This document shows, piece after piece, positions 6,470-32,866 of a stretch of DNA of 64,000 nt (positions are counted from its first letter, which is position 1; each line of letters opens with the position of its first letter). Source of the stretch: Terriglobia bacterium (GTDB lineage Bacteria > Acidobacteriota > Terriglobia > Bryobacterales > Bryobacteraceae); contig CAVTSS010000009.1 of the NCBI GenBank assembly GCA_963737495.1, positions 57,167 through 121,166 of the forward strand, in the 5' to 3' direction. A model generated the notes under the pieces. It was given only the letters and a program-made list of their open reading frames with translations, ran no database searches and was not told the DNA's origin. Position numbers and translations under genes: made by a program.

Positions 6470-6486
6470 TGGCATCCCGAATGCCA
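6470..6486. promoter_or_regulatory. perfect palindrome TGGCAT-CCCGA-ATGCCA (also fits sigma54 GG-N10-GC spacing)
   Basis: TGGCATCCCGAATGCCA, 21 nt upstream of ATG 6507. Confidence 0.35.
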
Positions 6487-6506
6487 GTATCATCCTGAGG
6501 TTCATT

Positions 6507-7175: not shown

Positions 7176-7910
7176 TTGGCGGAATCCCGTGTGAAGCTGA
7201 CGTTCCTGGGAACCCGAGGAGAAATCGAAGCAAGAACGCCGCTGCATCGCATGCATTCGTCGCTGCTGGTGTCCTGGCGCCGCAAGGCAGTCATGATCGA
7301 TTGCGGCGCGGACTGGGCCGGCAACGTCGAGCGTATTGGTCCGGATGCGATCCTGCTCACCCACGCACACTCGGACCATGTTGCCGGACTAAAGACGGGC
7401 GCCTTCTGCCCTGTCTATGCGGCTGCGGAGACATGGAGCAGGATCTGTACTGCCCGGATCGCTTCCAAAGTCGTGATCCGGTCACGTTGCAGGTTCGAGT
7501 TGTTCGGGATCGGGTTCGAAGCATTTCCGGTAGAGCACTCCATTCGCGCGCCCGCGGTCGGATATAGAATCACGGCGGGACGGCACAGCGTCTTCTACGT
7601 TCCAGACCTGGTACAGATTCGAGATCGGAGCGAAGCCCTGCGCGCGATCAGTCTCTATATCGGCGATGGGGCGTCGATTACACGTGGGATTCTTCGCAGG
7701 CGCGGCAAAACTGTGATCGGACATGCTTCGATTCGCACGCAGATTCAATGGTGCAAAGAAGAAGGCGTGCGGCGTGCGATTTTCTCTCATTGCGGTTCGG
7801 AAATCGTGACGAGCGATCCGGAGGAGGCTGCCCGGAAAGTTCGGCTTCTCGGCTCAGATTTCGGCGTGGATGCACGTATCGCTTATGACGGACTGAGCGT
7901 CACGCTGTGA
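7176..7910 (+). CDS. MBL-fold metallo-hydrolase
   Basis: KLTFLGTRG...MIDCGADW...ILLTHAHSDHVAGL (HxHxDH motif). It starts 7 nt after the CBS gene. The exact start (TTG 7176 or GTG 7191) is uncertain. Confidence 0.75.
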   Translation: MAESRVKLTFLGTRGEIEARTPLHRMHSSLLVSWRRKAVMIDCGADWAGNVERIGPDAILLTHAHSDHVAGLKTGAFCPVYAAAETWSRICTARIASKVVIRSRCRFELFGIGFEAFPVEHSIRAPAVGYRITAGRHSVFYVPDLVQIRDRSEALRAISLYIGDGASITRGILRRRGKTVIGHASIRTQIQWCKEEGVRRAIFSHCGSEIVTSDPEEAARKVRLLGSDFGVDARIAYDGLSVTL

Positions 7911-9773
7911 GGCTTCCGTGGGGCTTTCAACGCTCAAAATGAGCCGGTCGAGCTCGTCGCGCTCCAATGTCTCTTTACGGACGAGCTCTACGGAAATGCG
8001 GTCCATCGCCGCGATTCGCTGTTGCAGGATCTGTCTTACTTCACCGTAGATTTCATCCACAATCCGCCGCGATTCCGCGTCGATCATCTCTGCGCTTTTT
8101 TCGCTGTAGTTGCGTTCTTCCATATCGAACGGCGATTTCAGGAATGCTCCGGACATCGGCTTGCCATAAGTAAGCTTCCCGAGCTGCTCGCTCATCCCAA
8201 AGCGCGTCACCATTTGCCGGACCAGCTCGGAAGCCCGCTCGAGATCGTCCGACGCGCCGGTTGAGACCACTCCCCGATAGTGAATTTCTTCGGCCGCACG
8301 CCCGCCCAGCAGAACGGCGATCTGATCCTCCAGTTGCGGCTTGGTCATCAAATAGCGCTCCTGCGTGGGTAATTGCAGCGTATAGCCCAAGGCGCCAATC
8401 GATCGCGGAATAATAGAGACGCGATGCAATGGATCGGCGTGCTTCACCGAAAGCGCCACCAGCGCATGGCCGGACTCGTGAACCGCGACGCGTTCTTTCT
8501 CTTCCGGGCTCATGACGCGGCTCTTTTTCTCAAGACCGAGCATGACACGATCCACCGCCTGCTCCAGATCGCGGATTTCGACACTTTCCGCGCCCCGGCG
8601 CACGGCCAGCAGCGCCGCCTCATTCACGATGTTGGCCAGATCGGCGCCCGCCATTCCGGGCGTTCGCGCCGCAATCGTCTCCAGGTCGACATTTTCCGCC
8701 ATGTGGATTTTGCGAGCGTGAACCTTTAAAATCTCGACGCGATCCTTGAGGTCCGGACGATCCACAAGAACCTGCCGATCGAAGCGCCCGGCGCGCAGCA
8801 GCGCTGCATCCAGCACCTCCGGCGTGTTGGTGGCCGCCATCAGGATCACGCCTTCGGAACTGTCGAATCCATCCATTTCCGCCAGGAGTTGATTGAGCGT
8901 CTGCTCGCGTTCATCGTTGCTGAATCCCACCGCCCGTCCGGAAGTTCGCGATTTGCCGATCGCATCCAGTTCGTCGATAAACACGATGCAGGGCGCCTTC
9001 AGCTTGGCCTGCTCAAACAAGTCGCGCACGCGGGCCGCACCGACGCCGACGAACATCTCCACAAACTCCGATCCTGAGAGCGAGAAGAAGGACACGTGCG
9101 CTTCGCCGGCCACGGCTTTCGCCAACAAGGTCTTGCCGGTGCCCGGCGGTCCCACCAGCAGAACGCCTTTCGGAATCCGGCCGCCGAGCTTCTGATACTT
9201 CGCCGGCTGGCGAAGAAAGTCTACCACCTCTTCCAGTTCCAGCTTGGCTTCATCCAGGCCCGCGACATCGTCAAAAGTCACCTTGCTCGTGCTCGATTCA
9301 TCGTGAATCTTGGCCCGGTTCTTCCCGAACGTCAAAGCGCCGCCCGCTTGAGTCATGCGCCGCATTCCCATTCTGAAGATCAAGACGATAAACAGGAACG
9401 GCAGGACCCAACCCAGGATGTTCCAGATCCACGAAGTTTGGTCGATGCGGCCTTGGAACTTCACCGGATGTGCTTCGAGCTCCTTCAGGAGTTCTGATTC
9501 GTCCACGCCCGGCAGCCGCGTGGCGGTGATCGTCTGCGGCGGACCAGGGTTCTTTGCGTGAGCCGCATCGCTCTTCAGCACGCCGATCAGTTCGTGCTCG
9601 GTAACCTGAACCTCGCTCAAATGATCCGCTCGAAGCTCCACCAGGAAATCGCTGTAGGAAACCGCTTTGGATTGAGCCCCGGGAATGAGCCTGGTGGCAA
9701 GATAGATCGCAACCATGAGCACCGCGAAATTTACGGTTGAGAAGATCAAGCGATTCTTTTGCTTACTGTCCAT
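7854..9773 (-). CDS. ftsH: ATP-dependent zinc metalloprotease FtsH
   Basis: Walker [26 protein letters not shown], the SRH region and the zinc motif HESGHALV are present, with an N-terminal TM segment. Start taken at MDSKQKNRL (9773). The 3' end overlaps the convergent MBL gene by 57 nt. Confidence 0.95.
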
Positions 9774-10122
9774 AGCTGTTTTTGGCCGGGCGTTTGCGTA
9801 GGCTGGCGCTCTCTCCAGGAGCTGCACGTAGACCACCAGAAAGAACCAGATAAGACGTCGATTAGAAACGGGGAATCTAGGCGGGCGCACGCATTCTTCG
9901 CGCATGTACGTCGCTTAGGGATTTACTTCGGTCGCCAGTGCACCGGATACGAGTGATCGCGCCCTCGGCCCCGGTTTCTCGGCTGCTTCCGCCGCCATAT
10001 CGCCGACCGCTGAGCTATTGTGCGCAGAAATCGCGGTCACTTGCGCTTTTTCGCGCTTGCTGGTCACAGGACCAGAAAGAGTCCAAAAAGACTCGACCGC
10101 GGCTCGAAGCCACGCTCACCGA

Positions 10123-12792: not shown

Positions 12793-14139
12793 CTACACTC
12801 CCGAAGGAAACGTCTCGGCCGGCTCGCCGATACCCCATTCGGCACTGGGCTCGAGTGGTTCCACTGCGCGAGTTCGATCGAAATGGATCACCGCGTCGAA
12901 CTGATCGGAAAGAGAGGCGTGGAAGTAGTGACTCGCCAGCTCCGACTCCGGGCGGTAAATGACGCCGATCGCGCGCTCGAGCATTGGTGCACGCAGACCG
13001 TTCGAAACATGGCTGTTCCGCGGCAGCGTGAGCAGGAACGCCGGGATGTTCACGTCATGAAACAGCGATTCGACGCTGCCGGGCATCCCCGGACGGACGC
13101 GTTTGCGCTCGGCGGCTGCGCCCCAGTCGGATGCGGCAGTCACGGTGCCGGTGTAAGTTGTGAATCCGACCAGCACGCACTCGCGGCCGTATCGTTGCCG
13201 CACCAGCTGACCGACATTCCACTCGCCGGACCGGCCCATATCGGTGGCGCGCGCATCGCCCAAGTGCGAGTTGTGTGCCCAGATTACGACTTTCGATCGG
13301 CTGCCCTGATACTCAAAATGCTCCACCAGCGCGGCCAGCGTTTCCGTCATGTGCCGATCGCGAAGGTTCCACGAAGAAACCCGCCCACGGAACATCGTGC
13401 GGTAATACTCCTCGGCGTTCTTGATCAGACGCGCGTTTTGTTCGGCGAAGAAGTAATCATCCGCCGCGATCCGTCCGTCACGACGGGCATAGTCCGCGGC
13501 GCGCCGTTGCAACTCGATCAACTGCGCGACCACTTCGGACTCGCAGGTGTCGCCCAGGCCGAATCCAGCAGCGTAGCCATAGGCTTGCGGGTCCTCGCCG
13601 AAATTCTCGAAGCAGCCGTACCGGTAGCGTGCGCGCCGCGCACCCTCCGGATCCACCTTTTCGAGGTAACTCAGGACGGCTTCAATCGACGTGTGCAGGC
13701 TGTACAGATCAAGCCCGTAGAATCCCGCCTTCTTGGACCCCGGCGTGAGCGAATCGTTGTACTCGCGCAACCAACCGGCGAAGTCCAGGATGTCGGCATT
13801 CCGCCACATCCACGCGGGAAAACGCTTGAAGCCGGCGAGTGCTTCCTCGGCGTCGGGATCGGCGCTTGCGCCGCGTATGTAACGATTCACTCGATAGGCG
13901 TCCGGCCAATCGGCTTCGACGGCGATGGCGGTAAAGCCTTTTTCTGTAATGAGCCGTTTCGTAATTCGCGCGCGCTCGCGATAGAACTCATGCGTCCCGT
14001 GCGAGGCTTCCCCCAACAGGACGAACCGGGCATCGCCGATAAACTCGAGAAGCGGATCGTAATCTTCGTGACCGTAAACAATCGGATGCGCGGAATCGCG
14101 CACCAAGTCCAGTGCGATTGCCTCAGTTGCTGAAGGCAT
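12793..14139 (-). CDS. erythromycin esterase family protein
   Basis: FVLLGEASHGTHEFYRERARITKRLI...FTAIAVEADWPDAYRVNRYI...IWAHNSHLGDARAT. Confidence 0.85.
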   Translation of the reverse strand: MPSATEAIALDLVRDSAHPIVYGHEDYDPLLEFIGDARFVLLGEASHGTHEFYRERARITKRLITEKGFTAIAVEADWPDAYRVNRYIRGASADPDAEEALAGFKRFPAWMWRNADILDFAGWLREYNDSLTPGSKKAGFYGLDLYSLHTSIEAVLSYLEKVDPEGARRARYRYGCFENFGEDPQAYGYAAGFGLGDTCESEVVAQLIELQRRAADYARRDGRIAADDYFFAEQNARLIKNAEEYYRTMFRGRVSSWNLRDRHMTETLAALVEHFEYQGSRSKVVIWAHNSHLGDARATDMGRSGEWNVGQLVRQRYGRECVLVGFTTYTGTVTAASDWGAAAERKRVRPGMPGSVESLFHDVNIPAFLLTLPRNSHVSNGLRAPMLERAIGVIYRPESELASHYFHASLSDQFDAVIHFDRTRAVEPLEPSAEWGIGEPAETFPSGV

Positions 14140-17078: not shown

Positions 17079-17495
17079 TCACTTCCCGAACGCGTACAGA
17101 TGCCCCGTCGTCCGCACATAGATCCTTCCGTCGACAATCGCCGGCGTGGCGAAAATCGGCTCGCCCAGATCGTTCCGCGCGATCACGTTTAGCGCGTCTT
17201 CTGACCCATCCGCCACGCACACCACCCCGTCGCCTGACGCGAAATAAATCTTCCCGCCCGCCTCCACCGGCGACGAATAATACACCCCTCCCGCTCCCAG
17301 CCGAGCGCGATAAATCACCTTTCCCGACCTGCGCCCGAGCGCCGTCACGATTCCGCCATTGGTCACCGCGTACACCCGGTCCCGATACACCAGCGGCATC
17401 GGCACCTCCGGCACCGCCCGCGTCTCAATCCATTCGATCTTCTTTGATTCCGAATCCAGCCGGATCGCCATCAGCAGCGAAGTTCTGAAATTCAT
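17079..17495 (-). pseudogene. C-terminal fragment of a PQQ-like beta-propeller repeat protein
   Basis: Only about 3 blades are present (VYAVTNGGIVTALGRRSGKVIY...KIYFASGDGVVCV...GRIYVRTTGHLYAFGK). There is no N-terminal or signal part, and upstream DNA appears to code on the other strand. Confidence 0.5.
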
Positions 17496-18148: not shown

Positions 18149-18224
18149 TGCGGGCAGGTGTAACGGCTGCATTCGAGGCTCATAACCTCCGAGGTACTGA
18201 GTTCAATTCTCAGGCCCGCAACCA
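18149..18224 (+). tRNA. tRNA-Met(CAT)
   Basis: Acceptor TGCGGGC/GCCCGCA, loop CTCATAA, T arm CTGAG-TTCAATT-CTCAG, A73 plus CCA. Weak D stem, A at position 8, and a C:C mismatch in the anticodon stem. Confidence 0.75.
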
Positions 18225-18231
18225 TTTTCAA

Positions 18232-18306
18232 GCCGGAGTAGCTTAAGAGGAAAAGCCCTGGTCCTGTAAATCAGTGTTGGGATTTCGAGCATCCCCTCCG
18301 GCTCCA
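18232..18306 (+). tRNA. tRNA-Thr(TGT)
   Basis: Acceptor GCCGGAG/CTCCGGC, D stem GCTT/AAGC, anticodon stem CTGGT/ATCAG, loop CCTGTAA (C33), T arm GGGAT-TTCGAGC-ATCCC, CCA. Confidence 0.85.
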
Positions 18307-18309
18307 CAA

Positions 18310-18337
18310 GGCTGTTCGATTCAGCCACCGCGCTCCA
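18310..18337 (+). pseudogene. orphan tRNA 3' fragment (T arm + 3' acceptor strand + CCA)
   Basis: GGCTG-TTCGATT-CAGCC ACCGCGC T CCA, with no matching 5' half. It sits in the 37-nt gap between the two tRNA-Thr genes. Confidence 0.6.
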
Positions 18338-18343
18338 GATTTA

Positions 18344-18417
18344 GCCGGCGTAGCTCAGTGGCAGAGCAGTTGTTCGGTAAACAACAGACGAGCGTTCGAT
18401 TCGCTCCGTTGGCTCCA
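18344..18417 (+). tRNA. tRNA-Thr(GGT)
   Basis: Acceptor GCCGGCG/CGTTGGC (two G:U), D arm GCTC-AGTGGCA-GAGC, anticodon stem GTTGT/ACAAC, loop TCGGTAA (C33), T arm GAGCG-TTCGATT-CGCTC, CCA. Confidence 0.85.
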
Positions 18418-18425
18418 GATTTTTC

Positions 18426-18491
18426 GCGGGATTAACTGAACGGTGGCAGTCTTCCAAACTGCAAAGCCGGGTTGGACTCCCGGATCTTGCT
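18426..18491 (+). tRNA. tRNA-Gly(TCC), 66 nt with a reduced D arm
   Basis: Acceptor GCGGGAT/ATCTTGC (two G:U), 10-nt D arm ACT-GAAC-GGT without GG, anticodon stem GCAGT/ACTGC, loop CTTCCAA, T arm CCGGG-TTGGACT-CCCGG (G instead of C56). No CCA. Confidence 0.6.
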
Positions 18492-18502
18492 CTATCGTTT
18501 TT

Positions 18503-18576
18503 GCGAGTGTGGCCGATTGGTTAGGTTTCTGGTTGCCAGCCAGAACAACGCAGTTCGATTCTGCGCACTCGCTCCA
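18503..18576 (+). tRNA. tRNA-Gly(GCC)
   Basis: Acceptor GCGAGTG/CACTCGC, anticodon stem TCTGG/CCAGA, loop TTGCCAG, T arm CGCAG-TTCGATT-CTGCG, T73 plus CCA. Confidence 0.85.
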
Positions 18577-18581
18577 GGTTT

Positions 18582-18655
18582 GGGTTGGTAGCTCAACGGG
18601 AGAGCTCCGGTCCTGCAAACCAGCGATAAGGGTTCAATTCCCTTCCGATCCACCA
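18582..18655 (+). tRNA. tRNA-Ala(TGC)
   Basis: Acceptor GGGTTGG/CCGATCC with the G3:U70 Ala identity pair, D arm GCTC-AACGGGA-GAGC, loop CCTGCAA (C33), one C:A mismatch in the anticodon stem, T arm AAGGG-TTCAATT-CCCTT, CCA. Confidence 0.8.
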
Positions 18656-18658
18656 ATT

Positions 18659-18733
18659 GTGGCTGTAGCTTATACGGTAAAGCCGCTGGCTGTGAACCAG
18701 TGAAAGAGGATTCAAGCTCCTCCAGCCACCCCA
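18659..18733 (+). tRNA. tRNA-His(GTG)
   Basis: Acceptor GTGGCTG/CAGCCAC, D stem GCTT/AAGC, anticodon stem GCTGG/CCAGT, loop CTGTGAA, T arm GAGGA-TTCAAGC-TCCTC, C73 plus CCA. The base at -1 is T, so G-1 is not encoded. Confidence 0.85.
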
Positions 18734-18735
18734 TT

Positions 18736-18810
18736 GTGGGCGTCGTCCAAGGGATAGGGCATCGGTTTCCTAAACCGACGATCAGAGTTCGAGTCTCTGC
18801 GTCCATACCA
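18736..18810 (+). tRNA. tRNA-Arg(CCT)
   Basis: Acceptor GTGGGCG/CGTCCAT, D stem GTCC/GGGC, anticodon stem TCGGT/ACCGA, loop TTCCTAA, T arm CAGAG-TTCGAGT-CTCTG, CCA. Confidence 0.85.
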
Positions 18811-18813
18811 TTT

Positions 18814-18888
18814 CGGCCCGTCATCCAACGGGATAGTGTACAGCTCTCGGATAGCTGAGATCGCCGTTCGGTCGGCGCTGGCCGACCA
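18814..18888 (+). tRNA. tRNA-Pro(CGG), irregular copy
   Basis: C1:G72 acceptor CGGCCCG/CTGGCCG (one mismatch), anticodon stem CAGCT/AGCTG, loop CTCGGAT, T arm CGCCG-TTCGGT-CGGCG with only a 6-nt loop, CCA. Confidence 0.6.
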
Positions 18889-18913
18889 GTTCTTTGACAT
18901 TCGAATTCAACCT

Positions 18914-18988
18914 CGCGGATTCGCCAAGTGGTATGGCACCGGTTTCGGGAACCGGGTTTCCGGTGTTCGATTCACCCATCCGCGACCA
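18914..18988 (+). tRNA. tRNA-Pro(CGG)
   Basis: Acceptor CGCGGAT/ATCCGCG (C1:G72), D stem GCCA/TGGC, anticodon stem CCGGT/ACCGG, loop TTCGGGA (G37), T loop TTCGATT, CCA. Confidence 0.85.
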
Positions 18989-18990
18989 TA

Positions 18991-19069
18991 CGGGGAGTAT
19001 AGGAGTCTGGTTTATCTAACCTGCTTTGGAAGCAGGGGCACGTTGGTTCAAATCCAACCTCCCCGACCA
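18991..19069 (+). tRNA. tRNA-Pro(TGG)
   Basis: Acceptor CGGGGAG/CTCCCCG, anticodon stem CCTGC/GCAGG, loop TTTGGAA, T arm GTTGG-TTCAAAT-CCAAC, CCA. Confidence 0.85.
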
Positions 19070-19076
19070 TTTTCAT

Positions 19077-19150
19077 TCCTCGCTAGCTCAACGGTAGAGC
19101 GCGCGGCTGTTAACCGCGTTGTCGTGGTTCGATCCCACGGCGGGGAGCCA
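19077..19150 (+). tRNA. tRNA-Asn(GTT)
   Basis: Acceptor TCCTCGC/GCGGGGA (U1:A72), D arm GCTC-AACGGTA-GAGC, anticodon stem CGCGG/CCGCG, loop CTGTTAA, T arm CGTGG-TTCGATC-CCACG, G73 plus CCA. Confidence 0.9.
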
Positions 19151-19151
19151 T

Positions 19152-19225
19152 GCCCTGTTAGCTCAGTGGTAGAGCGCGAAGCTTACATCTTCGTAACCGG
19201 TGTTCGATTCATCGACGGGGCACCA
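19152..19225 (+). tRNA. tRNA-Val(TAC)
   Basis: Acceptor GCCCTGT/ACGGGGC, D arm GCTC-AGTGGTA-GAGC, anticodon stem CGAAG/CTTCG, loop CTTACAT, T arm CGGTG-TTCGATT-CATCG, CCA. Confidence 0.9.
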
Positions 19226-19230
19226 AGTTC

Positions 19231-19308
19231 GCAGGAAAAGCTCAGTGCGGCTTGAGCACTCGACCGATAATCGAGAGGCCGCTGGTTCGATCCCAGCTTC
19301 CTGCACCA
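19231..19308 (+). tRNA. tRNA-Ile(GAT)
   Basis: Acceptor GCAGGAA/TTCCTGC, D stem GCTC/GAGC, anticodon stem CTCGA/TCGAG, loop CCGATAA (C33), T arm GCTGG-TTCGATC-CCAGC, CCA. Confidence 0.85.
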
Positions 19309-19310
19309 AT

Positions 19311-19385
19311 GTCCCCGTGGTCTATCGGAATGGGCACCGCCCTTCTAAAGCGGCGAGGCTGGTTCAACTCCAGCCGGGGACCCCA
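19311..19385 (+). tRNA. tRNA-Arg(TCT)
   Basis: Acceptor GTCCCCG/CGGGGAC, anticodon stem CCGCC/AGCGG (one C:A mismatch), loop CTTCTAA, T arm GCTGG-TTCAACT-CCAGC, CCA. Confidence 0.8.
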
Positions 19386-19390
19386 ATCGA

Positions 19391-19462
19391 GGGGAGATGG
19401 CCGAGCGGCTAAGGCGCTGACTTTGAATCAGTCTTACGCACGTTCAGCTCGTGCTCTCCCTC
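19391..19462 (+). tRNA. tRNA-Gln(TTG)
   Basis: Acceptor GGGGAGA/TCTCCCT (G1:U72), Gln-like D arm GCCGAGCGGCTAAGGC, anticodon stem GCTGA/TCAGT, loop CTTTGAA, T arm GCACG-TTCAGCT-CGTGC. No CCA. Confidence 0.7.
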
Positions 19463-19492
19463 GCAGCGAATTGCGCTGGCGAAGTGGTTATC

Positions 19493-19567
19493 GAGACCGT
19501 GGCTTAGCGGCAGAAGCACGTGACTTTTGATCACGGGAGGCGAGTTCGCCTCTCGCCGGTCTCACCA
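19493..19567 (+). tRNA. tRNA-Lys(TTT)
   Basis: Acceptor GAGACCG/CGGTCTC, D stem GCTT/AAGC, anticodon stem CGTGA/TCACG, loop CTTTTGA (G37), T arm GCGAG-TTCGCCT-CTCGC, CCA. Confidence 0.85.
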
Positions 19568-19576
19568 AGGTTTCAC

Positions 19577-19653
19577 GAGGCAGTAGGCAAGAGGATTAAG
19601 CCGTAGCACTTTCAATGCTGAGATCGTGGGTTCGAATCCGATCTGCCTTACCA
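19577..19653 (+). tRNA. tRNA-Glu(TTC)
   Basis: Acceptor GAGGCAG/CTGCCTT, D stem GGC/GCC, anticodon stem TAGCA/TGCTG, loop CTTTCAA, T loop TTCGAAT (one stem mismatch), CCA. Confidence 0.8.
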
Positions 19654-19654
19654 T

Positions 19655-19729
19655 GTCCCCGTCGTCCAATGGACAGGACAGTTCGCTACGAACGAACAAA
19701 TCGGCGTTCAAATCGTCGCGGGGATACCA
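19655..19729 (+). tRNA. tRNA-Arg(ACG), array copy
   Basis: Acceptor GTCCCCG/CGGGGAT, D stem GTCC/GGAC, anticodon stem GTTCG/CGAAC, loop CTACGAA, T arm CGGCG-TTCAAAT-CGTCG, CCA. Confidence 0.85.
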
Positions 19730-19737
19730 GAGTTTAC

Positions 19738-19813
19738 GAAGTGGTGGCCGAGCGGCAGAGGCACTTCACTGTCTATGAAGACTAAGCGGGTTCGACTCCC
19801 GTCCACTTCGCCA
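19738..19813 (+). tRNA. tRNA-Asp(GTC)
   Basis: Acceptor GAAGTGG/CCACTTC, anticodon stem CTTCA/TGAAG, loop CTGTCTA (pyrimidine at 37), Asp-like T arm GCGGG-TTCGACT-CCCGT, G73 plus CCA. Confidence 0.8.
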
Positions 19814-19820
19814 TTAGTTT

Positions 19821-19895
19821 GTCCCTGTCTTCTAGTGGCAGGAAAGCGGACTCTCAATCCGCGAGCGAGAGTTCGATTCTCTCCCGGGGAGCCCA
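19821..19895 (+). tRNA. tRNA-Glu(CTC)
   Basis: Glu-like body GTCCCTG TC TTCT AGTGGCA GGAA, anticodon stem GCGGA/TCCGC, loop CTCTCAA, T arm GAGAG-TTCGATT-CTCTC. The 3' acceptor strand pairs imperfectly. Confidence 0.7.
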
Positions 19896-19901
19896 GTGGG
19901 G

Positions 19902-19945
19902 CTGTCGCAACTTGACAGGCTGGAACCACGGAACATGATCCAGCC
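19902..19945 (+). promoter_or_regulatory. two adjacent hairpins in the 78-nt tRNA-Glu/rtcB spacer
   Basis: CTGTC-gcaactt-GACAG (19902-19918) and GGCTGGA-accacggaacatga-TCCAGCC (19918-19945), followed by GAGGA RBS 19964-19968. Confidence 0.35.
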
Positions 19946-19973
19946 CGGTAGCCTTTAAGAATTGAGGAAAATC

Positions 19974-21155
19974 ATGCGACTTGAAGGAAAGATAGCGATT
20001 TTCGGCGAGCACGAGGACAATACCATTCAGCAGATCCGCCGCGCGGCAGCCCCGGCATTTGTGCGTCAGGCGGTCTTGTGCGCGGACGGCCACAAGGGCT
20101 ACGCCGTGCCGATCGGTGGCGTTGTCGCGTACGAAGACGCGATATCCCCGTCCGGCGTCGGCTACGATATCGCGTGCGGGAACAAGGCCATCCTGACGGA
20201 CGCCAATGCTGACGAGGTCAAGGCCAACATCTCGAAGATTATGGACGATGTTTGGCGCACGGTATCATTTGGCGTCGGGCGCAAGAATGAGGACGAGCGC
20301 GTTGACCATGATCTATTCGACGATCCGGCATGGAAGGTAGGAGCCTGCGCTCCGCTAAAGGAGATGGCGCGTCAGCAACTCGGGACCGTTGGGTCAGGCA
20401 ATCATTACGTCGATATTTTCGAAGATGAGCAGGGCCGGATTTGGGTGGGGGTCCACTTCGGCTCCCGTGGTCTCGGTCACAAAACTGCGACATGGTTCCT
20501 GAAGGCCGCAGGTGCGTCGGACGGCATGGATGTCGACCCGTGCGTCTTGCCGGTAGGATCAGACTTGGGCGCTCAATATCTCGAAGGGATGCGCCTTGGC
20601 GGATTATATGCCTACGCCGGCCGCGATTGGGTGTGCACACGCGTCGCGCGGATTCTGGGGGCGAACGTTATCGAAGAGGTTCACAATCACCACAATTTCG
20701 CGTGGCGCGAGAATCACGGTGGTCGCGATCTGTGGGTCGTCCGTAAGGGCGCGACGCCGGCATTCCCCGGCCAGCGCGGATTCGTTGGCGGGAGCATGGG
20801 CGACATGTCAGTGATCATCGAAGGCGTGGAGCACGCGGACGCGGCACATTCTCTCTATTCGACCGTGCACGGAGCCGGACGAGTAATGGGGCGCATGGAG
20901 GCTAAGGGTAAGGTTGACCGAAAGACCGGCGAAGTGAAGAGGGCTGGCAAGGTCACGCAGGAAATGATGGCTGCGTGGGTTCACCGTGAAGGCGTCGAAC
21001 TCCGTGGAGCGGGCTTGGACGAATCGCCACATTGCTACAAGCGGTTGCCTGACGTTCTCGCGCAACATGACCGGTCGATAAAGATCCTGCACACTCTGCG
21101 ACCGCTGGGTGTCGCGATGGCTTCAGCATTTGAGTTTGATCCGTTCAAAGATTGA
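19974..21155 (+). CDS. rtcB: RNA ligase RtcB (short bacterial form) embedded in the tRNA array
   Basis: 393 aa. CADGHKGYAVPIGGV, GYDIACGN, GSGNHYVD, HFGSRGLGH, HNHHN and TVHGAGR motifs are present. ATG 19974 has a GAGGA RBS (track ORF starts at TTG 19962). Confidence 0.92.
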   Translation: MRLEGKIAIFGEHEDNTIQQIRRAAAPAFVRQAVLCADGHKGYAVPIGGVVAYEDAISPSGVGYDIACGNKAILTDANADEVKANISKIMDDVWRTVSFGVGRKNEDERVDHDLFDDPAWKVGACAPLKEMARQQLGTVGSGNHYVDIFEDEQGRIWVGVHFGSRGLGHKTATWFLKAAGASDGMDVDPCVLPVGSDLGAQYLEGMRLGGLYAYAGRDWVCTRVARILGANVIEEVHNHHNFAWRENHGGRDLWVVRKGATPAFPGQRGFVGGSMGDMSVIIEGVEHADAAHSLYSTVHGAGRVMGRMEAKGKVDRKTGEVKRAGKVTQEMMAAWVHREGVELRGAGLDESPHCYKRLPDVLAQHDRSIKILHTLRPLGVAMASAFEFDPFKD

Positions 21156-21160
21156 CCTTT

Positions 21161-21236
21161 GGCTGGCAAGCTAATCAGGTGAAAGCACCAGTCTGAAAAG
21201 CCGGATAGCCTGGATCGATACCAGGGCCAGCCACCA
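21161..21236 (+). tRNA. tRNA-Phe(GAA)
   Basis: Acceptor GGCTGGC/GCCAGCC, anticodon stem CCAGT/GCCGG (one A:C mismatch), loop CTGAAAA, T arm CCTGG-ATCGATA-CCAGG (atypical loop), CCA. It starts 5 nt after the rtcB stop. Confidence 0.8.
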
Positions 21237-21243
21237 AGGTTGC

Positions 21244-21318
21244 AGGGGATTAGCAAAGTGGGAATGCATCTGGCTCTGACCCAGACATGACGAGGTTCGA
21301 TTCCTCGATCCCCTGCCA
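21244..21318 (+). tRNA. tRNA-Gln(CTG)
   Basis: Acceptor AGGGGAT/ATCCCCT (weak 1:72 pair), anticodon stem TCTGG/CCAGA, loop CTCTGAC, T arm CGAGG-TTCGATT-CCTCG, G73 plus CCA. Confidence 0.85.
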
Positions 21319-21327
21319 AACATTTTC

Positions 21328-21356
21328 TTGCGAATTCGGTATTTCACGGATATACT
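21328..21356 (+). promoter_or_regulatory. sigma70-like internal promoter candidate of the array
   Basis: TTGCGA (21328-21333), 17-nt spacer, TATACT (21351-21356), in the only long (140 nt) tRNA-free gap of the array. Confidence 0.45.
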
Positions 21357-21458
21357 GATCACATGAACCGCGCACTCAGTTTATCCCGCCTATCGCGCGC
21401 CTCCTGGTCGACATCGCGACTCAGTGGGTTGTGTTCATATTCAAGCCTCTAAAGTTCT

Positions 21459-21532
21459 CCAGTCGATCCTGAACGGCCAAGGGGCTGCCTGCAAAGCAGC
21501 TATTCGCAGTTCGACTCTGCGCGACTGGTCCA
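21459..21532 (+). tRNA. tRNA-Cys(GCA)
   Basis: Acceptor CCAGTCG/CGACTGG, anticodon stem GCTGC/GCAGC, loop CTGCAAA, T arm CGCAG-TTCGACT-CTGCG, T73 plus CCA. Confidence 0.85.
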
Positions 21533-21534
21533 AT

Positions 21535-21619
21535 GCCCCGCTGGTGGAATTGGGAGACACGCTGGTCTTAGAAACCAGTGCTTTCGGGCGTGGGGGTTCA
21601 AGTCCCTCGCGGGGCACCA
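21535..21619 (+). tRNA. tRNA-Leu(TAG), type II
   Basis: Acceptor GCCCCGC/GCGGGGC, anticodon stem CTGGT/ACCAG, loop CTTAGAA, long variable arm TGCTTTCGGGCGT, T arm GGGGG-TTCAAGT-CCCTC, A73 plus CCA. Confidence 0.9.
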
Positions 21620-21634
21620 AAGTTCTTTGACATT

Positions 21635-21723
21635 GGGAGGTGGCGCTGAATGGTCGGCGAGCGGTCCTGAAAACCGTGCCGTGGTGCTGAGCCACGAGGG
21701 TTCGATTCCTTCACCTCCCGCCA
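21635..21723 (+). tRNA. tRNA-Ser(TGA), type II
   Basis: Acceptor GGGAGGT/ACCTCCC, anticodon stem GCGGT/ACCGT, loop CCTGAAA (C33), variable arm hairpin CCGTGG-tgctga-GCCACG, T arm GAGGG-TTCGATT-CCTTC, G73 plus CCA. Confidence 0.85.
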
Positions 21724-21730
21724 GGTTTGT

Positions 21731-21806
21731 GTGGGTGAGGCTCGATTGGGAGAGCTGCGGTCTCCAAAGCCGTTATTTGAGAGTTCGAATCTCTCCACCC
21801 ATGCCA
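21731..21806 (+). tRNA. tRNA-Trp(CCA)
   Basis: Acceptor GTGGGTG/CACCCAT, D stem GCTC/GAGC, loop CTCCAAA, T arm GAGAG-TTCGAAT-CTCTC, G73 plus CCA. Confidence 0.85.
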
Positions 21807-21807
21807 C

Positions 21808-21899
21808 CGAGAGCGAGGCGGACGGTAAGCCACCTCACTGCTAATGAGGCAAGCGCCGGTTGACGGTGCGACGCGGTTCGACTCCGCGGCTCTCGGCCA
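21808..21899 (+). tRNA. tRNA-Ser(GCT), type II
   Basis: Acceptor CGAGAGC/GCTCTCG, anticodon stem CCTCA/TGAGG, loop CTGCTAA, 22-nt variable arm, T arm CGCGG-TTCGACT-CCGCG, G73 plus CCA. Confidence 0.85.
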
Positions 21900-21905
21900 G
21901 ATTAT

Positions 21906-21990
21906 GGGTATCAGGCGGACGTGGCGGGCCGCGCTGCGCTGTAAACGCAGTTCTTCGGACGACGGGGTTCGAATCCCTGGATACCCACCA
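21906..21990 (+). tRNA. tRNA-Tyr(GTA), type II
   Basis: Acceptor GGGTATC/GATACCC, anticodon stem CTGCG/CGCAG, loop CTGTAAA, variable arm TTCTTCGGACGA, T arm CGGGG-TTCGAAT-CCCTG, A73 plus CCA. Confidence 0.9.
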
Positions 21991-21998
21991 AAGTTGAC

Positions 21999-22073
21999 GC
22001 TGGTGTAGCCCAATTGGCAGGAGGCGACTCGCTTAAGACGAGTTCAGTGCGCGTTCGAATCGCGTCACCAGCA
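21999..22073 (+). tRNA. tRNA-Leu(TAA) with a short (5-nt) variable loop
   Basis: Acceptor GCTGGTG/CACCAGC, 3-bp D stem GCC/GGC with a large loop, anticodon stem ACTCG/CGAGT, loop CTTAAGA (G37), variable TCAGT, T arm GCGCG-TTCGAAT-CGCGT, A73. No CCA. Confidence 0.7.
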
Positions 22074-22077
22074 CCGC

Positions 22078-22151
22078 GGGCCGCTAGCAGAATTGGTATA
22101 TGCACTCGCCTCAAGAGCGAGAGGATCTCGGTTCGAGTCCGAGGCGGCCCA
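22078..22151 (+). tRNA. tRNA-Leu(CAA) with a short (5-nt) variable loop
   Basis: Acceptor GGGCCGC/GCGGCCC, anticodon stem CTCGC/GCGAG, loop CTCAAGA (G37), variable AGGAT, T arm CTCGG-TTCGAGT-CCGAG, A73. No CCA. Confidence 0.75.
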
Positions 22152-22307: not shown

Positions 22308-22520
22308 CTCTGACCTATTCCTATTCCACTTGTACGGCCCGGCCGATCTCCTTTGATTCAAGTGAGGTATGGTCGCGTACAATGAGCGCCGGTCCGCTGG
22401 CGCGTGAGAAGTTTTAGATCGTCGCGTAACTTTCTGCTCCTATCCCGCGAACCTGCAACTGACAGCTGCGACAAGCTCGCTTCCGAAAACCGCAGCGGTC
22501 AGACTACAGGAGAATACGCA

Positions 22521-23567
22521 ATGCAAAACTTGACGGAAAAGTTGACAAGGCTTGGCGCGATCGCGCTTCTGGCCGGTGCGGCAGTCAGCGCGCAAAACCA
22601 GAGCGGGCAACCCCTTGTGGTTACTGCGACGAACGCCGCTTCCAACCAGTTGCTGGTTTACAACACCAGGGCGCAGCTAATCCAAACGGTCAGTACGCAG
22701 GGTCAGGGCGGCGTGAGCGGGAACGCGGGCGGCATCGCCGTCCATGATCAGCAGATTGCCGTGGTCAACTTCGGGTCGAAGTCGGTCTCATTGTTCACGC
22801 AGGAAGGGAACGCCTTCAAAGTGATGCGGATCATCCCTGCCGCTTCGAGCCCGGTGAGCGTGGCATTCGGAAACGACCATCTCTACATCCTGGGAACGAC
22901 AACGATTGAGTCGCATCAAATGTATGGCAACGAGATTAATACGAACCCCGACGGGATGGCCCGCCTGTTCAAGGCCGATGGCTCCGCGGCGCAGGTGGGG
23001 GTGGTTGAGAACCAGCTCGTCATCAGCGAGAAGGGCACTCCGGGCGCGATCGTCGCCGGTAGTTCAGGGAACGGCGTGATTGAGACGGTGAACCTGTCGG
23101 CAACCGGTGCGATCAGCGGTGGCACGGTCCGGGAAGTTGCGGGCAGCCTCAACGCGCCCTTCGGGTTGGCGACCCGCGGCAATGACGCTTACGTCACCAT
23201 CGCCCACGCCAACGAAATCAGCCTGGTGAGGAATGACGCGGTCCTCACGATCACCGGCTCCGGGACGCAGAACGCCCCTTGCTGGGTGGCGCTCGACGGA
23301 CCTTTCCTGTTCTCCTCCAATTCGCCGAGCCAGACCATTTCGCGCTACGCAGTCTACGGGCAGAAGATCGTGCAGGACGCCGCCGTGGTTGCTTCCCTCG
23401 CCGGCGATCCGACCGATATTGCCTATCGGCAAGGGACGGTCGCGGTCATTGACGGCGTCAACCTCTCGATCTTCAGTGTGGACGAGGATGGGAATCTTGT
23501 TCTTTCCGGACGCGCGCCGATCACCAGCGTGGATAACGGGGCCGCTATCGTCTCCGGTCAGAATTAG
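22521..23567 (+). CDS. secreted beta-propeller (lactonase/YncE-like) protein
   Basis: Signal peptide MQNLTEKLTRLGAIALLAGAAVSAQ, then repeated ...V..F....V.. blades. AGGAGA RBS before ATG 22521. Confidence 0.65.
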   Translation: MQNLTEKLTRLGAIALLAGAAVSAQNQSGQPLVVTATNAASNQLLVYNTRAQLIQTVSTQGQGGVSGNAGGIAVHDQQIAVVNFGSKSVSLFTQEGNAFKVMRIIPAASSPVSVAFGNDHLYILGTTTIESHQMYGNEINTNPDGMARLFKADGSAAQVGVVENQLVISEKGTPGAIVAGSSGNGVIETVNLSATGAISGGTVREVAGSLNAPFGLATRGNDAYVTIAHANEISLVRNDAVLTITGSGTQNAPCWVALDGPFLFSSNSPSQTISRYAVYGQKIVQDAAVVASLAGDPTDIAYRQGTVAVIDGVNLSIFSVDEDGNLVLSGRAPITSVDNGAAIVSGQN

Positions 23568-23621
23568 CTCCGTTTCTCTTATAATCAACCAGGATGCAAG
23601 CCGCGCTCTTACGCGGGCCAG

Positions 23622-24293
23622 GTGAATGAGAGCAGATCCAGGATTTGCACGATAGATCTGTATGCAGGTAGCCTCACTCTTGCAGGACTCGCCGCTAGAC
23701 TGCGGGTCGCTGGGAAAGCCTTCGTGAGCTCTCCCTTAGCGTCCGAGTGGGCGCGCGATGAGAAGCTGGAGGCGTTGATGTCCCGGTATCAGAGCGGGGA
23801 TCACGACGCCGCCCACCTCCTCATCGGGCGTGTGACTCCACTGCTACACCGTTACTTCCTGATCCACGCTGCAGATCGTCGATATGCGGATGACCTGGTA
23901 CAGGAAACCTGGATGCGAATACACAAGGCGCGTCACACCCACCGGCGCGGCGAACCTGTCCTACCATGGATTTTCGCGATTGCACGGCATACCAGCCTGG
24001 ACGCTTACCGTAAGGCGCGGCGCATCGAAGTTCACGAGCGACAGGTGGACTCGCTACCGGAACGGCCGCCGTGGAATCCCGGGTCCGCAGCAAACGGTCC
24101 GGATCTCGACGTGATGCTCGGGTCGTTGCCGAAGACGCAGCGCGAAGTGATCGTCATGCTGAAAATCTTGGGGATGACAATTGAGGAGGCGGCACGGGCC
24201 ACTTCATCGAGTGCGGGTTCAGTAAAACAGAAAGCGTTTCGCGCGTATAAAAAGTTGCGCGAAGTGCTGTCGCTTGGGATGAATGTGAGATGA
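23622..24293 (+). CDS. ECF-family RNA polymerase sigma factor (start uncertain, possibly GTG 23724)
   Basis: LMSRYQSGDHDAAHLLIGRVTPLLHRYF...DDLVQETWMRIHKARHT (region 2) and PKTQREVIVMLKILGMTIEEAARATSSSAGSVKQKAFRAYKKLR (region 4). Confidence 0.85.
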   Translation: MNESRSRICTIDLYAGSLTLAGLAARLRVAGKAFVSSPLASEWARDEKLEALMSRYQSGDHDAAHLLIGRVTPLLHRYFLIHAADRRYADDLVQETWMRIHKARHTHRRGEPVLPWIFAIARHTSLDAYRKARRIEVHERQVDSLPERPPWNPGSAANGPDLDVMLGSLPKTQREVIVMLKILGMTIEEAARATSSSAGSVKQKAFRAYKKLREVLSLGMNVR

Positions 24294-25003
24294 CGCCGGA
24301 CGAGATCGACAGAATCCTCGCCGAAGCAGCGAAGCGCGCCTCCCCGGACGACGGCGCGCCAGACGCCATGGTTCGGCGCGCGGAGGATGCCATCCTCGCG
24401 GATCTGCGTCCGGTCCGGCCGTTGGCGTCCGCCTGGGTCTTTACGATGGTCTTGGTCGCGATATTCCTGGCGTTCGCCGCGGTGAGCGCCTTGGTCCTCG
24501 GTCTGCACGGCCTCGCTGCTCTCGATGCGGCTCAGATTGCGCTCATCTTGCCGGCGCTGCTGTGCGCGGCATGGCTGGCGGCGGCGGCGTGCGTCCGCGA
24601 GATGAGCCCAGCGGCTGGACCTCGGCTCGACATCATTGCTCTGGCTCTTGCAGCGGCGGGTTTTCCGATCCTTTTCGCCCTGGTGTTTCACGGCTACAGT
24701 TCGGGCGATCTGGTGAAAGAAGGCGTCCCATGTCTTGTCACCGGATTGTGCGTGGCGATCCCCACCGGCCTCACCATCGCATTGATCTTTCGCCGCGGCT
24801 TCGTGCTCGCGTGGAGCGCGGCGGGCTTAGCCGCGGGGGTTTTGTCGGGACTCGCCGGTCTCGGAACGCTAGAATTGCACTGCGCCAACTTGAAGGCGAT
24901 CCACGTAATCATCTGGCATGTGGGTGTGGTATTGGTCAGCGGACTCTTCGGATTCGGTTCCGGCCGGATCGTTGACTCTTACCGTGCTAATTCAGCGCGC
25001 TAG
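24290..25003 (+). CDS. NrsF/DUF1109-type anti-sigma factor (multi-pass membrane)
   Basis: ATGA overlap with the sigma gene. Short cytoplasmic N-terminus followed by six hydrophobic helices. Confidence 0.65.
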   Translation: MTPDEIDRILAEAAKRASPDDGAPDAMVRRAEDAILADLRPVRPLASAWVFTMVLVAIFLAFAAVSALVLGLHGLAALDAAQIALILPALLCAAWLAAAACVREMSPAAGPRLDIIALALAAAGFPILFALVFHGYSSGDLVKEGVPCLVTGLCVAIPTGLTIALIFRRGFVLAWSAAGLAAGVLSGLAGLGTLELHCANLKAIHVIIWHVGVVLVSGLFGFGSGRIVDSYRANSAR

Positions 25004-31362: not shown

Positions 31363-31439
31363 TGGTGCGCCCGGCATGACTCGAACATGCGACCTTCTGG
31401 TTCGTAGCCAGACGCTCTATCCAACTGAGCTACGGGCGC
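31363..31439 (-). tRNA. tRNA-Arg(ACG), canonical housekeeping-type copy
   Basis: Reverse complement GCGCCCG TA GCTC AGTTGGATA GAGC G TCTGG CTACGAA CCAGA AGGTC GCATG TTCGAGT CATGC CGGGCGC A CCA. All stems are perfect. Confidence 0.95.
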
Positions 31440-32825: not shown

Positions 32826-32866
32826 ATGGCGACCAACCTGTTTCAGGTCAACCGGCAGCACAGAGG

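Follow-up and report, generated by a model that had tools for sequence, protein, structure and literature searches.

An acidobacterial tRNA array with an internal rtcB gene, probably a horizontally acquired and supernumerary operon

Why should a bacterial chromosome carry some thirty tRNA genes packed around a gene for an RNA ligase? The question is raised by a 64,000-nucleotide stretch of Terriglobia bacterium DNA (Acidobacteriota, Bryobacteraceae; assembly GCA_963737495.1, contig CAVTSS010000009.1, positions 57,167 to 121,166), hereafter called the window, which derives from a peat-soil population represented by metagenome-assembled genomes. At positions 18149-22151 of the window (4.0 kb), a dense array of tRNA genes lies on the plus strand with an rtcB gene inside it. 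It resembles the L-arrays, long and non-periodic tRNA operons that spread by horizontal gene transfer and add supernumerary genes to their hosts (Santamaria-Gomez et al. 2021, PMC8421152). We consider it probable, though well short of certain, that the block is a horizontally acquired, supernumerary operon of the L-array type with its own internal short-form RtcB, and that it represents a chromosomal copy, devoid of the HNH gene, of a circulating cassette. Loci of this kind have been described before; this one comes from a new phylum, is a chromosomal copy with a physically internal rtcB, and adds some oddities of the tRNAs and a clear connection to phages.

How many of the genes are genuine? 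A preliminary description of the DNA had counted 31 cloverleaf genes with 30 distinct anticodons and every amino acid represented. We regarded a gene as supported if either of two standard detectors, ARAGORN and the Rfam tRNA model, recognized it at its own threshold. With default settings, ARAGORN reports 27 array tRNA genes on the plus strand between 18232 and 22151. The Rfam model finds 24 of these 27 at its gathering score and additionally recovers tRNA-Phe(GAA) (21161-21233, 46.8 bits); lax filters applied to short stretches add scores for Gly(TCC), Cys and Ser(GCT) of 37.9, 43.6 and 30.2 bits, respectively. The Tyr and Ser(TGA) genes are called by ARAGORN, and their best Rfam match is a sub-threshold one to the tRNA-Sec model. 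The order, orientation and spacing of the genes are as first described, and the detectors accept most of them (29/31). The two that pass neither detector are the Met-CAT candidate (18149-18224) and the first Pro-CGG candidate (18814-18888). Both lack any Rfam tRNA match even at E<=10, and their folds have defective D, anticodon or T arms; ARAGORN picks them up solely with its cut-off reduced to 80-85%, at which it also makes plainly wrong calls within rtcB and on the minus strand. The corrected tally is thus 29 supported genes with 29 anticodons; two more genes are probable pseudogenes, and there is at least one fragment. Since the sole Met candidate, a degenerate initiator-like gene, is among the two that fail, only 19 amino acids are firmly covered.

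The genes are mostly separated by 1-9 nt, the larger gaps being 25, 30, 37, 78 and 140 nt. No tandem periodicity was found in the array, and its direct repeats are merely shared T-arm and acceptor motifs. Weak Rfam matches to YrlA and plastid ycf2, which represent antisense matches or sequences that look like tRNAs, were disregarded. The block recurs with 100% identity in seven metagenome contigs, which come from independent assemblies of different samples and in several cases reach across both junctions; it is therefore not an assembly artefact or a chimera. The same seven contigs offer no within-species variation against which structural constraint could be assessed.

The embedded gene (19974-21155, plus strand) encodes a short-form RNA 3'-phosphate/5'-OH ligase of 393 amino acids that belongs to the RtcB family (PF01139, E 2e-66), and a GAGGA ribosome-binding site precedes its ATG by 6 nt. 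As reported at the outset, it begins 78 nt 3' of tRNA-Glu(CTC) and ends 5 nt 5' of tRNA-Phe, and its CADGHKGY, GSGNHY and HGAGR motifs are intact: in an alignment with Pyrococcus horikoshii RtcB, they fall on its catalytic residues. All metal-binding residues, the GTP-binding residues and the GMP-accepting histidine are conserved in this alignment; in the P. horikoshii protein these positions are, in literature numbering, D65/H67, D95/C98, N202/H203, H234, H329/N330, S385, H404/R408 and K480. Compared with L001, the closest relative in our survey (see below), the ratio of nonsynonymous to synonymous substitution rates (dN/dS) is ~0.06, which indicates that the gene is under strong long-term purifying selection. 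The protein falls outside the E. coli RtcB equivalog of NCBIfam (119.9 bits against a cut-off of 407) as well as the PrfH-coupled RtcB2 family (102 against 272), and no rtcA, rtcR or archease gene was seen beside it among the annotated neighbours.

Is the linkage of tRNAs and rtcB accidental? The suggestion that they form one module is borne out by its recurrence. We surveyed the 80 best RtcB matches in GTDB genomes together with IMG/VR contigs. Ten GTDB loci, almost all of them from Acidobacteriota, carry 6-37 tRNAs around or beside rtcB (L006, L014, L029, L030, L031, L032, L036, L046, L047 and L080; the array of L032 is found ~5 kb downstream of rtcB, and that of L014 on the opposite strand), and five IMG/VR contigs display the same arrangement. 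Altogether, an RtcB of the clade found in the window sits inside or beside a long array at 15 other loci and, additionally, in the phage Tunturi_5. In a neighbour-joining tree, the array-linked RtcBs form three clades that neighbour each other, among which stand-alone acidobacterial RtcBs are interspersed. The window protein groups with those of L006 and L091, L001 (no tRNAs), L087/L088 (one tRNA) and L011 (two tRNAs). As the members of this clade range from arrays to between zero and two tRNAs, arrays evidently both persist and erode within it. Nine of the related arrays contain an embedded, homologous HNH endonuclease gene of 170-205 codons, as identified by clustering of open reading frames (ORFs). 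Two loci encode a TROVE/Ro60-VWA protein, either directly after rtcB and the array (L097, 7555-9024) or just upstream of rtcB within the array (L090, 4529-5938); these genes link the arrays to RNA quality-control operons of the Rsr/Y-RNA type. No TROVE remnant was found in the window, nor were any upstream or spacer elements shared with the other arrays.

The surroundings of these loci are varied. The flanks of the window array are not syntenic with those of other RtcB-array loci. L006 and L014 are flanked by metabolic genes and are therefore chromosomal, and L097 and L030 lie among genes of a defence or mobile type (McrBC, a subtilase with an AAA ATPase, SNF2 helicase, methyltransferase). In the IMG/VR contigs L092 and L097, the flanks comprise defence or cellular genes and no phage genes. 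In L091, by contrast, a gene for the large terminase subunit follows 700 nt after the array, which marks this contig as viral; because it is the only one with a terminase, the viral labels of the IMG/VR contigs should not be taken at face value.

The phage connection is more direct in a cultured virus. Protein searches yielded a single close match in a GenBank phage, the 'tRNA splicing ligase' gp296 of Tunturiibacter phage Tunturi_5 (PP885688.1), a cultured 309-kb jumbo phage of Acidobacteriaceae. This RtcB is 65.5% identical to that of the window and 73-77% identical to those of L014, L029, L031, L090 and L092 (77% for L014). Using ARAGORN, we found 41 tRNAs in a 36-kb stretch of the phage genome, which are unannotated in the GenBank record. 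Their order around the ligase is ...Gln Gln Gly Thr [HNH gp292] Thr Thr Pro His Ala Ala Ala Phe [RtcB] Pro-CGG Pro-CGG [RimK-like]... The HNH protein gp292 shares 46-55% identity with most array HNHs and 34% with that of L030. The phage has been published as encoding 43 tRNAs for 20 amino acids, a CCA-adding enzyme and a ligase, with no description of their arrangement (PMC11924767), and the tRNA sets of jumbo phages have been described as 'supplemented by' RtcB in the context of counter-defence (PMC7824862). The preliminary description knew of no array with an internal rtcB; comparable sets of tRNAs and RtcB in phages, and reports of rtcB embedded in L-arrays, were already published. Since homologues reside both in phages and in chromosomal contexts, the cassette appears to move between the two.

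The same traits extend the comparison to cyanobacteria. Over its full length, the HNH protein all8564 of Anabaena sp. PCC 7120 shares 34-39% identity with the HNHs of the acidobacterial arrays and with phage gp292 (E 1e-27 to 1e-30). The array on the Anabaena delta plasmid includes tRNA-Leu genes of 75-78 nt, and its Asp-Glu(CTC) and Ala-His adjacencies are also found in the window. On the basis of these shared derived traits (HNH, short tRNA-Leu and gene adjacencies), we group acidobacterial, phage and cyanobacterial arrays in one evolutionary family. It is probable, as part of the same reading, that a cassette consisting of the tRNA array, RtcB and usually HNH circulates between Acidobacteriota chromosomes and phages and shares ancestry with the cyanobacterial trn operons. 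This common ancestry has a marker in the short tRNA-Leu genes.

By published definition, an L-array consists of ~15-43 tRNA genes in the same orientation with spacing short enough for co-transcription (PMC8421152). With 29 same-strand genes in 4.0 kb, a non-periodic order of 29 anticodons and a patchy distribution with signs of horizontal transfer, the window array has these properties; it has no HNH gene of the all8564 type, and this gene is frequent but not universal in L-arrays (PMC8421152). In the 2021 survey, the tRNA genes of Acidobacteria were mostly stand-alone or dispersed, with only short accretive A-arrays (PMC8421152). Acidobacteriota are, therefore, a new phylum for L-arrays.

Does the array add to the equipment of its host, or is it that equipment? 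Evidence from this one 64-kb window points to an add-on. Two of the array's components have counterparts elsewhere in it. A stand-alone, canonical tRNA-Arg(ACG) gene (31363-31439, minus strand; ARAGORN), the only tRNA of the window outside the array, lies 9 kb away and has the highest Rfam score in the window (70.9 bits); it matches the array Arg-ACG at 49/78 aligned positions (63%). Likewise, a second, long-form RtcB of 500 amino acids (4654-6156, plus strand; Pfam RtcB, E 1e-159), overlooked in the preliminary description, is encoded 14 kb upstream of the array and is 29% identical to the array RtcB (BLASTP). The array thus brings a dedicated ligase on top of a resident one. Genes for CBS-domain proteins (944-1474, 3053-4198 and 6384-7169), a ribosome hibernation factor/CSD protein (2405-3052, minus strand) and FtsH (7854-9905, minus strand) surround the second rtcB, and this neighbourhood looks like a resident stress or RNA-repair cluster.

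The composition of the array is also telling. Its anticodons in four-codon boxes mostly belong to U34 tRNAs that are cognate to the rarest codons of the host, and it lacks Leu-CAG/GAG, Ala-GGC/CGC, Val-GAC/CAC, Arg-CCG and Lys-CTT. In 18 genes of the window, the share of codons that have a Watson-Crick cognate anticodon in the array is only 47%. The set can hardly be called self-contained, as had been proposed, given this share, the failure of its sole Met gene in both detectors and a tRNA-His without G-1.

At the site itself, a downstream trio of genes (22521-25003), coding for an unknown beta-propeller-like protein, an extracytoplasmic function (ECF) sigma factor and an NrsF-type anti-sigma factor, is kept in 79 metagenomic relatives from peat and soil contigs (55-82% amino-acid identity), none of which has tRNAs beside it. 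In most trio-bearing contigs, the sigma/anti-sigma pair is divergently oriented. The block is consequently absent from this position in relatives, and no exact junction can be defined: we found no clean empty site, as the DNA upstream of the homologues of the downstream genes is unrelated to that of the window. On the left edge, a truncated PQQ/BamB-like beta-propeller ORF (17079-17495, minus strand; Pfam PQQ_2, NCBIfam BamB positions 269-376 of 377) retains only the C-terminal ~110 of ~380 residues. It is cut on the side facing the array, and its lost 5' part would fall where the array now sits; the truncation is probably a trace of the rearrangement by which the array arrived. The GC content of the array is not deviant. 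A 16-nt direct repeat flanking the array (17435-17450 and 22344-22359) was set aside, as ~0.2 such pairs are expected by chance according to a rough estimate.

The individual genes, all on the plus strand and called by ARAGORN unless stated otherwise (Rfam scores in bits), show how uneven the state of the array is. It opens with the Met-CAT candidate, a probable pseudogene with a defective D arm and anticodon stem, which is 75% identical to the canonical initiator tRNA of L036 and looks like a decayed initiator-type gene. tRNA-Thr(TGT) (18232-18306, 49.2 bits), with C33 and the anticodon loop CCTGTAA, is followed by a 37-nt remnant of a tRNA 3' half (18306-18342; repeat family D2) that comprises the T arm, acceptor strand and CCA and is 78% identical to the 3' end of Gly-GCC. 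Next come tRNA-Thr(GGT) (18344-18417, 61 bits), again with C33, and an atypical tRNA-Gly(TCC) (18426-18491, 37.9 bits under lax filters and detected by ARAGORN only when relaxed) that has a reduced D arm, the T loop TTGGACT and no encoded CCA. tRNA-Gly(GCC) (18503-18576, 50.7 bits) precedes tRNA-Ala(TGC) (18582-18655, 55.3 bits), in which G3:U70 is present and position 33 is a C, and tRNA-His(GTG) (18659-18733, 56.9 bits), which keeps C73 and has a T at position -1. tRNA-Arg(CCT) (18736-18810, 53.3 bits) leads to the first Pro-CGG candidate, a probable pseudogene with a 6-nt T loop and mismatched stems that is 56% identical to the second, supported tRNA-Pro(CGG) (18914-18988, 48.7 bits). The series continues with tRNA-Pro(TGG) (18991-19069, 55 bits), tRNA-Asn(GTT) (19077-19150, 59.7 bits), tRNA-Val(TAC) (19152-19225, 62 bits), tRNA-Ile(GAT) with C33 (19231-19308, 60.4 bits), tRNA-Arg(TCT) (19311-19385, 44.1 bits) and tRNA-Gln(TTG) (19391-19462, 43.2 bits), the last with a class-II-like D arm and no encoded CCA. 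Before rtcB lie tRNA-Lys(TTT) (19493-19567, 56.4 bits; G37, loop CTTTTGA), tRNA-Glu(TTC) (19577-19653, 55.3 bits), the array isodecoder of tRNA-Arg(ACG) (19655-19729, 52.8 bits), tRNA-Asp(GTC) (19738-19813, 50.5 bits; class-II-like D arm and a pyrimidine at position 37) and tRNA-Glu(CTC) (19822-19893, 41 bits).

Behind rtcB, tRNA-Phe(GAA) (21161-21236, T loop ATCGATA) is recognized by Rfam and, when relaxed, by ARAGORN, and tRNA-Gln(CTG) (21244-21318, 60.4 bits) is followed by the 140-nt spacer (21319-21458), which has no similarity to other loci. The final group consists of tRNA-Cys(GCA) (21459-21532, 43.6 bits under lax filters), tRNA-Leu(TAG) (21535-21619, 53.5 bits), which is of class II with a long variable arm, tRNA-Ser(TGA) with C33 (21635-21723; 44.9 bits with the tRNA-Sec model, below the gathering score), tRNA-Trp(CCA) (21731-21806, 52.7 bits), tRNA-Ser(GCT) (21808-21899, 30.2 bits under lax filters) and tRNA-Tyr(GTA) (21906-21990; 28.7 bits, with the tRNA-Sec model only). 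Two class-I-like tRNA-Leu genes with A73 and no encoded CCA close the array, tRNA-Leu(TAA) of 77 nt with a short variable arm (21999-22075, 54.3 bits) and tRNA-Leu(CAA) of 74 nt (22078-22151, 63.3 bits).

Taken together, most array tRNAs encode CCA and fold well. When tRNAs with the same anticodon are compared across 13-14 arrays, the sequences are very divergent and the cloverleaf is kept, with compensatory changes at 18/20 and 19/21 pairs. Two further features recur. U33 is near-universal in tRNAs, yet C33 replaces it in five window tRNAs (Thr-TGT, Thr-GGT, Ala-TGC, Ile-GAT and Ser-TGA). Across 17 arrays from all three RtcB clades, 51/375 tRNAs have C33, and it recurs in the same isoacceptors, namely Thr-GGT, Ile-GAT, Ala-TGC, Thr-TGT and Val-TAC; besides the window, it occurs in L006, L014, L029-L031, L036, L046, L047, L090-L092, L097 and L106. 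Elsewhere, we counted 2/34 among singleton tRNAs, 1/40 in phage Tunturi_5 and 0/24 in the Anabaena trn operon. Our literature search returned no report on C33 in such arrays. The second feature is the class-I-like, short tRNA-Leu with A73, which is unusual for bacteria; tRNA-Leu genes of 74-79 nt with a short variable arm are also present in L030, L032, L047, L092, L097, L106 and Tunturi_5. In addition, many related arrays (L006, L014, L029-L031, L036, L080, L090-L092 and L097) yield Ile(TAT) calls, often of 80-94 nt, and over-long Arg-ACG and Lys-TTT calls, which may be insertions, introns or mis-calls. The window array has no over-long tRNA calls.

Several observations weigh against an acquired operon in working order. 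The array holds two degenerate genes and a tRNA half-remnant, four to five genes do not encode CCA, and several tRNAs lack U33 or a canonical T loop, all of which are signs of decay. Rfam scores of 30-63 bits compare with 70.9 bits for the stand-alone tRNA, and some array members may not be chargeable. The array tRNA-His has no encoded G-1, which is normally needed by the bacterial histidyl-tRNA synthetase and is encoded in 5/14 related arrays. The typical cassette gene is also missing, since neither an HNH gene nor a remnant of one was detected in the window (tblastn, best E 0.15). A consensus scan placed promoter-like sites in the 78-nt spacer before rtcB (19912-19939, plus strand; TTGACA, 16 nt, CATGAT; 10/12) and in the 140-nt spacer (21328-21356; TTGCGA, 17 nt, TATACT; 9/12), and found none upstream of the first gene; because promoter and terminator counts were at the shuffled expectation, neither site is above chance and the scans are uninformative. 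The covariation is partly circular, as only detected, cloverleaf-forming tRNAs entered the alignment. Finally, the term supernumerary rests here on one duplicated isoacceptor, the composition of the array and the published dispersal of Acidobacteria tRNA genes.

What might such an operon do? Given the tight spacing, the simplest assumption is that the tRNAs and rtcB form one transcript, or that the block is transcribed as a few precursors. RNase P and 3' processing would then release ~29 tRNAs, most of them with an encoded CCA, along with the rtcB mRNA. Should ribosome-targeting antibiotics, toxin RNases or anticodon nucleases deplete or cut the resident tRNA pool, the array could supply sequence-divergent replacement or decoy tRNAs, and RtcB could reseal tRNAs broken to 2',3'-cyclic-phosphate/5'-OH ends. 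The anatomy, the recurrent linkage, the homology to phage and cyanobacterial modules and the intact catalytic site of RtcB are direct observations, and the function is likely a back-up of the tRNA pool combined with the resealing of cleaved tRNAs. We propose this role by analogy with the Anabaena trn operon and with the tRNA and ligase sets of jumbo phages; by the same analogy, the array would be inducible and protective. Ribosome-targeting antibiotics induce the trn operon of Anabaena together with the HNH gene all8564 and rtcB (PMC8421152). Of its 26 array tRNAs, 23 are charged in vivo, and the array favours survival (PMC8421152, PMC10272220). TrcR is a common repressor of the trn operon as well as of rtcB; its regulon includes RimK (PMC10272220). 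The initial proposal of spare tRNAs plus a tRNA ligase for translation stress and tRNA-cleaving toxins agrees with these findings; overall, that description had made a real, slightly overstated observation and had given it a reasonable interpretation, largely anticipated in the literature.

The signs of decay lend themselves to a different account, the main rival, in which the block is relic cargo: a decaying tRNA cassette of a phage or mobile element, silent and with no role in the cell, that looks intact because too little time has passed. Besides the two degenerate genes and the half-remnant, a possible further remnant upstream fits this account, as do the lost HNH gene of the relatives, the missing G-1 of tRNA-His and the low covariance-model scores. 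Arrays do erode, as the same-clade relatives with zero to two tRNAs by rtcB (L001, L087/L088 and L011) demonstrate, and L-arrays are reported to be nearly silent under standard conditions (PMC8421152). The full-length RtcB ORF, with all its catalytic residues and strong long-term purifying selection, speaks against this account; so do the cloverleaf, anticodon and mostly CCA kept in 29/31 genes and the complete identity of the block in seven metagenome assemblies. The 'cryptic' Anabaena array, moreover, proved inducible and beneficial. We thus regard a relic as possible but rather unlikely. A functional alternative turns on the variant tRNAs themselves: those with C33, a short-arm Leu structure or an altered position 37 would resist or soak up tRNA-cleaving toxins, and RtcB would recycle the cut ones. 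It draws on the recurrence of C33 in the same isoacceptors (five tRNAs in the window and 51/375 over 17 arrays, against 2/34 singletons), on the McrBC, SNF2 helicase and methyltransferase genes that adjoin related arrays and are of a defence type, and on the sponge role proposed for the operonic tRNAs of Anabaena, some of which are cleaved under stress (PMC8421152). No tRNase gene was identified near the array, however, and C33 is nearly absent from the phage (1/40) and absent from Anabaena (0/24), so that it is no general property of the cassette; a set of this decoy or nuclease-evading kind is, in our judgement, distinctly improbable.

Two further explanations are poorly supported. It could be the main tRNA cluster of the organism, as known from Firmicutes, with rtcB as a passenger; 19 amino acids, one tRNA per codon box and an encoded CCA in most genes would be expected of such a housekeeping set. 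Against it stand the lack of a valid Met or initiator tRNA and of cognates for the commonest codons of the host (CTG, GCC/GCG, GTG/GTC, CGC and AAG; 47% Watson-Crick cognate), the better-scoring Arg-ACG outside the array, relatives without an array at the site, the mostly stand-alone tRNA genes of Acidobacteria in the published survey and the homology of the array to phage and plasmid cassettes. We judge this explanation very improbable. Equally, RtcB is the tRNA splicing ligase of archaea and metazoans and could, as in archaea, join the exons of intron-containing or split array tRNAs. The over-long calls in some related arrays (Ile-TAT of 92-94 nt and Arg-ACG of 89-94 nt) would fit such substrates, but the window array retains rtcB with no intron or abnormal length in its tRNAs, and among the annotated neighbours we saw no gene for a splicing endonuclease, which leaves this the least credible of the explanations. 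The reading that remains probable is that of an acquired, supernumerary L-array-type operon.

The wider surroundings of the array are cellular. No phage structural or replication genes occur within 9 kb on either side, so that the locus does not qualify as a prophage, and the neighbours over this distance encode FtsH, PolX, an esterase, a rhomboid protein, the ECF sigma/anti-sigma pair, cytochrome P460 and hydrolases. An erythromycin esterase gene (12793-14139, minus strand; Pfam E 2e-142) lies 4 kb upstream; its nearness is curious, as L-arrays respond to ribosome-targeting antibiotics, and may be a coincidence. Beside the stand-alone tRNA-Arg(ACG), a separate integrative element comprises a tyrosine integrase (31566-32903), a D5-type primase (33218-34537), a DUF3854 protein (34513-35397) and a second integrase (41480-42403). 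Conserved chromosomal genes separate this integrase/primase element (31.5-42.4 kb) from the array, and the related contig L081 differs from the window across its region. Near the right end of the window are genes for a DDE-type transposase (52617-53690, minus strand) and an N6/N4 DNA methylase (62104-63105, minus strand).

If the preferred reading holds, long and horizontally spread tRNA operons extend to Acidobacteriota, a dominant soil phylum in which the 2021 survey had found none, and RtcB is in this phylum a regular physical member of the array, beyond mere co-regulation. The cassette is common to chromosomes, uncultured phage contigs and a cultured jumbo phage with a cultivable host, Tunturiibacter, and this provides an experimental system in which one can ask whether an array serves as translation back-up, in repair after tRNase attack or as a decoy. 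Two peculiarities of tRNA biology, the C33 variants and the short tRNA-Leu genes, are concrete enough to be tested. A bolder and, to us, unlikely interpretation is that the block is a chromosomally domesticated 'tRNA immunity' cassette of phage origin, whose C33 tRNAs (Thr, Ile, Ala, Val and Ser) and short-arm tRNA-Leu would escape or titrate toxins, with a dedicated RtcB to reseal the damage. If true, 'tRNA immunity', that is, defence or counter-defence by nuclease-resistant tRNA isodecoders, would be encoded by the host rather than by the phage.

Among known systems, the Anabaena trn operon is the closest analogue. It is likewise a long, non-periodic, same-strand operon with isodecoder redundancy and a patchy distribution suggestive of horizontal gene transfer, it has few pseudogenes (3/26, against 2/31 in the window), and it shares the class-I-like short tRNA-Leu and the adjacent Asp-Glu(CTC) and Ala-His pairs; for arrays of this kind, rtcB is reported to be linked, embedded or co-regulated. 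The differences concern the accessory genes and the tRNAs. In Anabaena, rtcB is chromosomal and merely co-regulated, whereas in the window it is physically inside the array; all8564 is present there, and the window copy has no HNH gene; CCA is encoded in ~1/3 of the Anabaena genes, as opposed to almost all in the window; and the C33 variants are found in the window only. The Anabaena operon is regulated by TrcR; the window array is not known to be under control of the TrcR type.

Tunturi_5 resembles the window in the RtcB subfamily, in the tRNA genes directly on both sides of rtcB, in two Pro-CGG genes and the short tRNA-Leu genes, and in an HNH that is homologous to that of the window's relatives. 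Its tRNA region, however, spans ~25 kb and is broken by many phage genes, including those for the CCA-adding enzyme and the RimK-like protein, whereas the window contains a compact 4-kb chromosomal block with no phage genes within 9 kb; furthermore, the phage tRNAs keep U33, unlike the C33 variants of the window.

The rtcBA and rsr-yrlBA-rtcBA operons of E. coli and Salmonella (RtcR, sigma-54) also link RtcB to tRNA damage, and the TROVE/Ro60 gene beside rtcB in two related acidobacterial arrays recalls the latter. In contrast to E. coli rtcBA, the RtcB of the window is no equivalog, and its neighbours are tRNAs, with flanking ORFs for a rhomboid protein, the PQQ fragment, the unknown protein and the ECF sigma factor. 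A precedent for joint transcription of tRNAs and an mRNA is the E. coli thrU-tyrU-glyT-thrT-tufB operon, which likewise has a protein gene within a few nt of tRNA genes; with such spacing, tRNA processing would define the ends of the mRNA. Compared with thrU-tufB, the window array is far richer, with 29 tRNAs, and it encodes an RNA repair enzyme instead of a translation factor.

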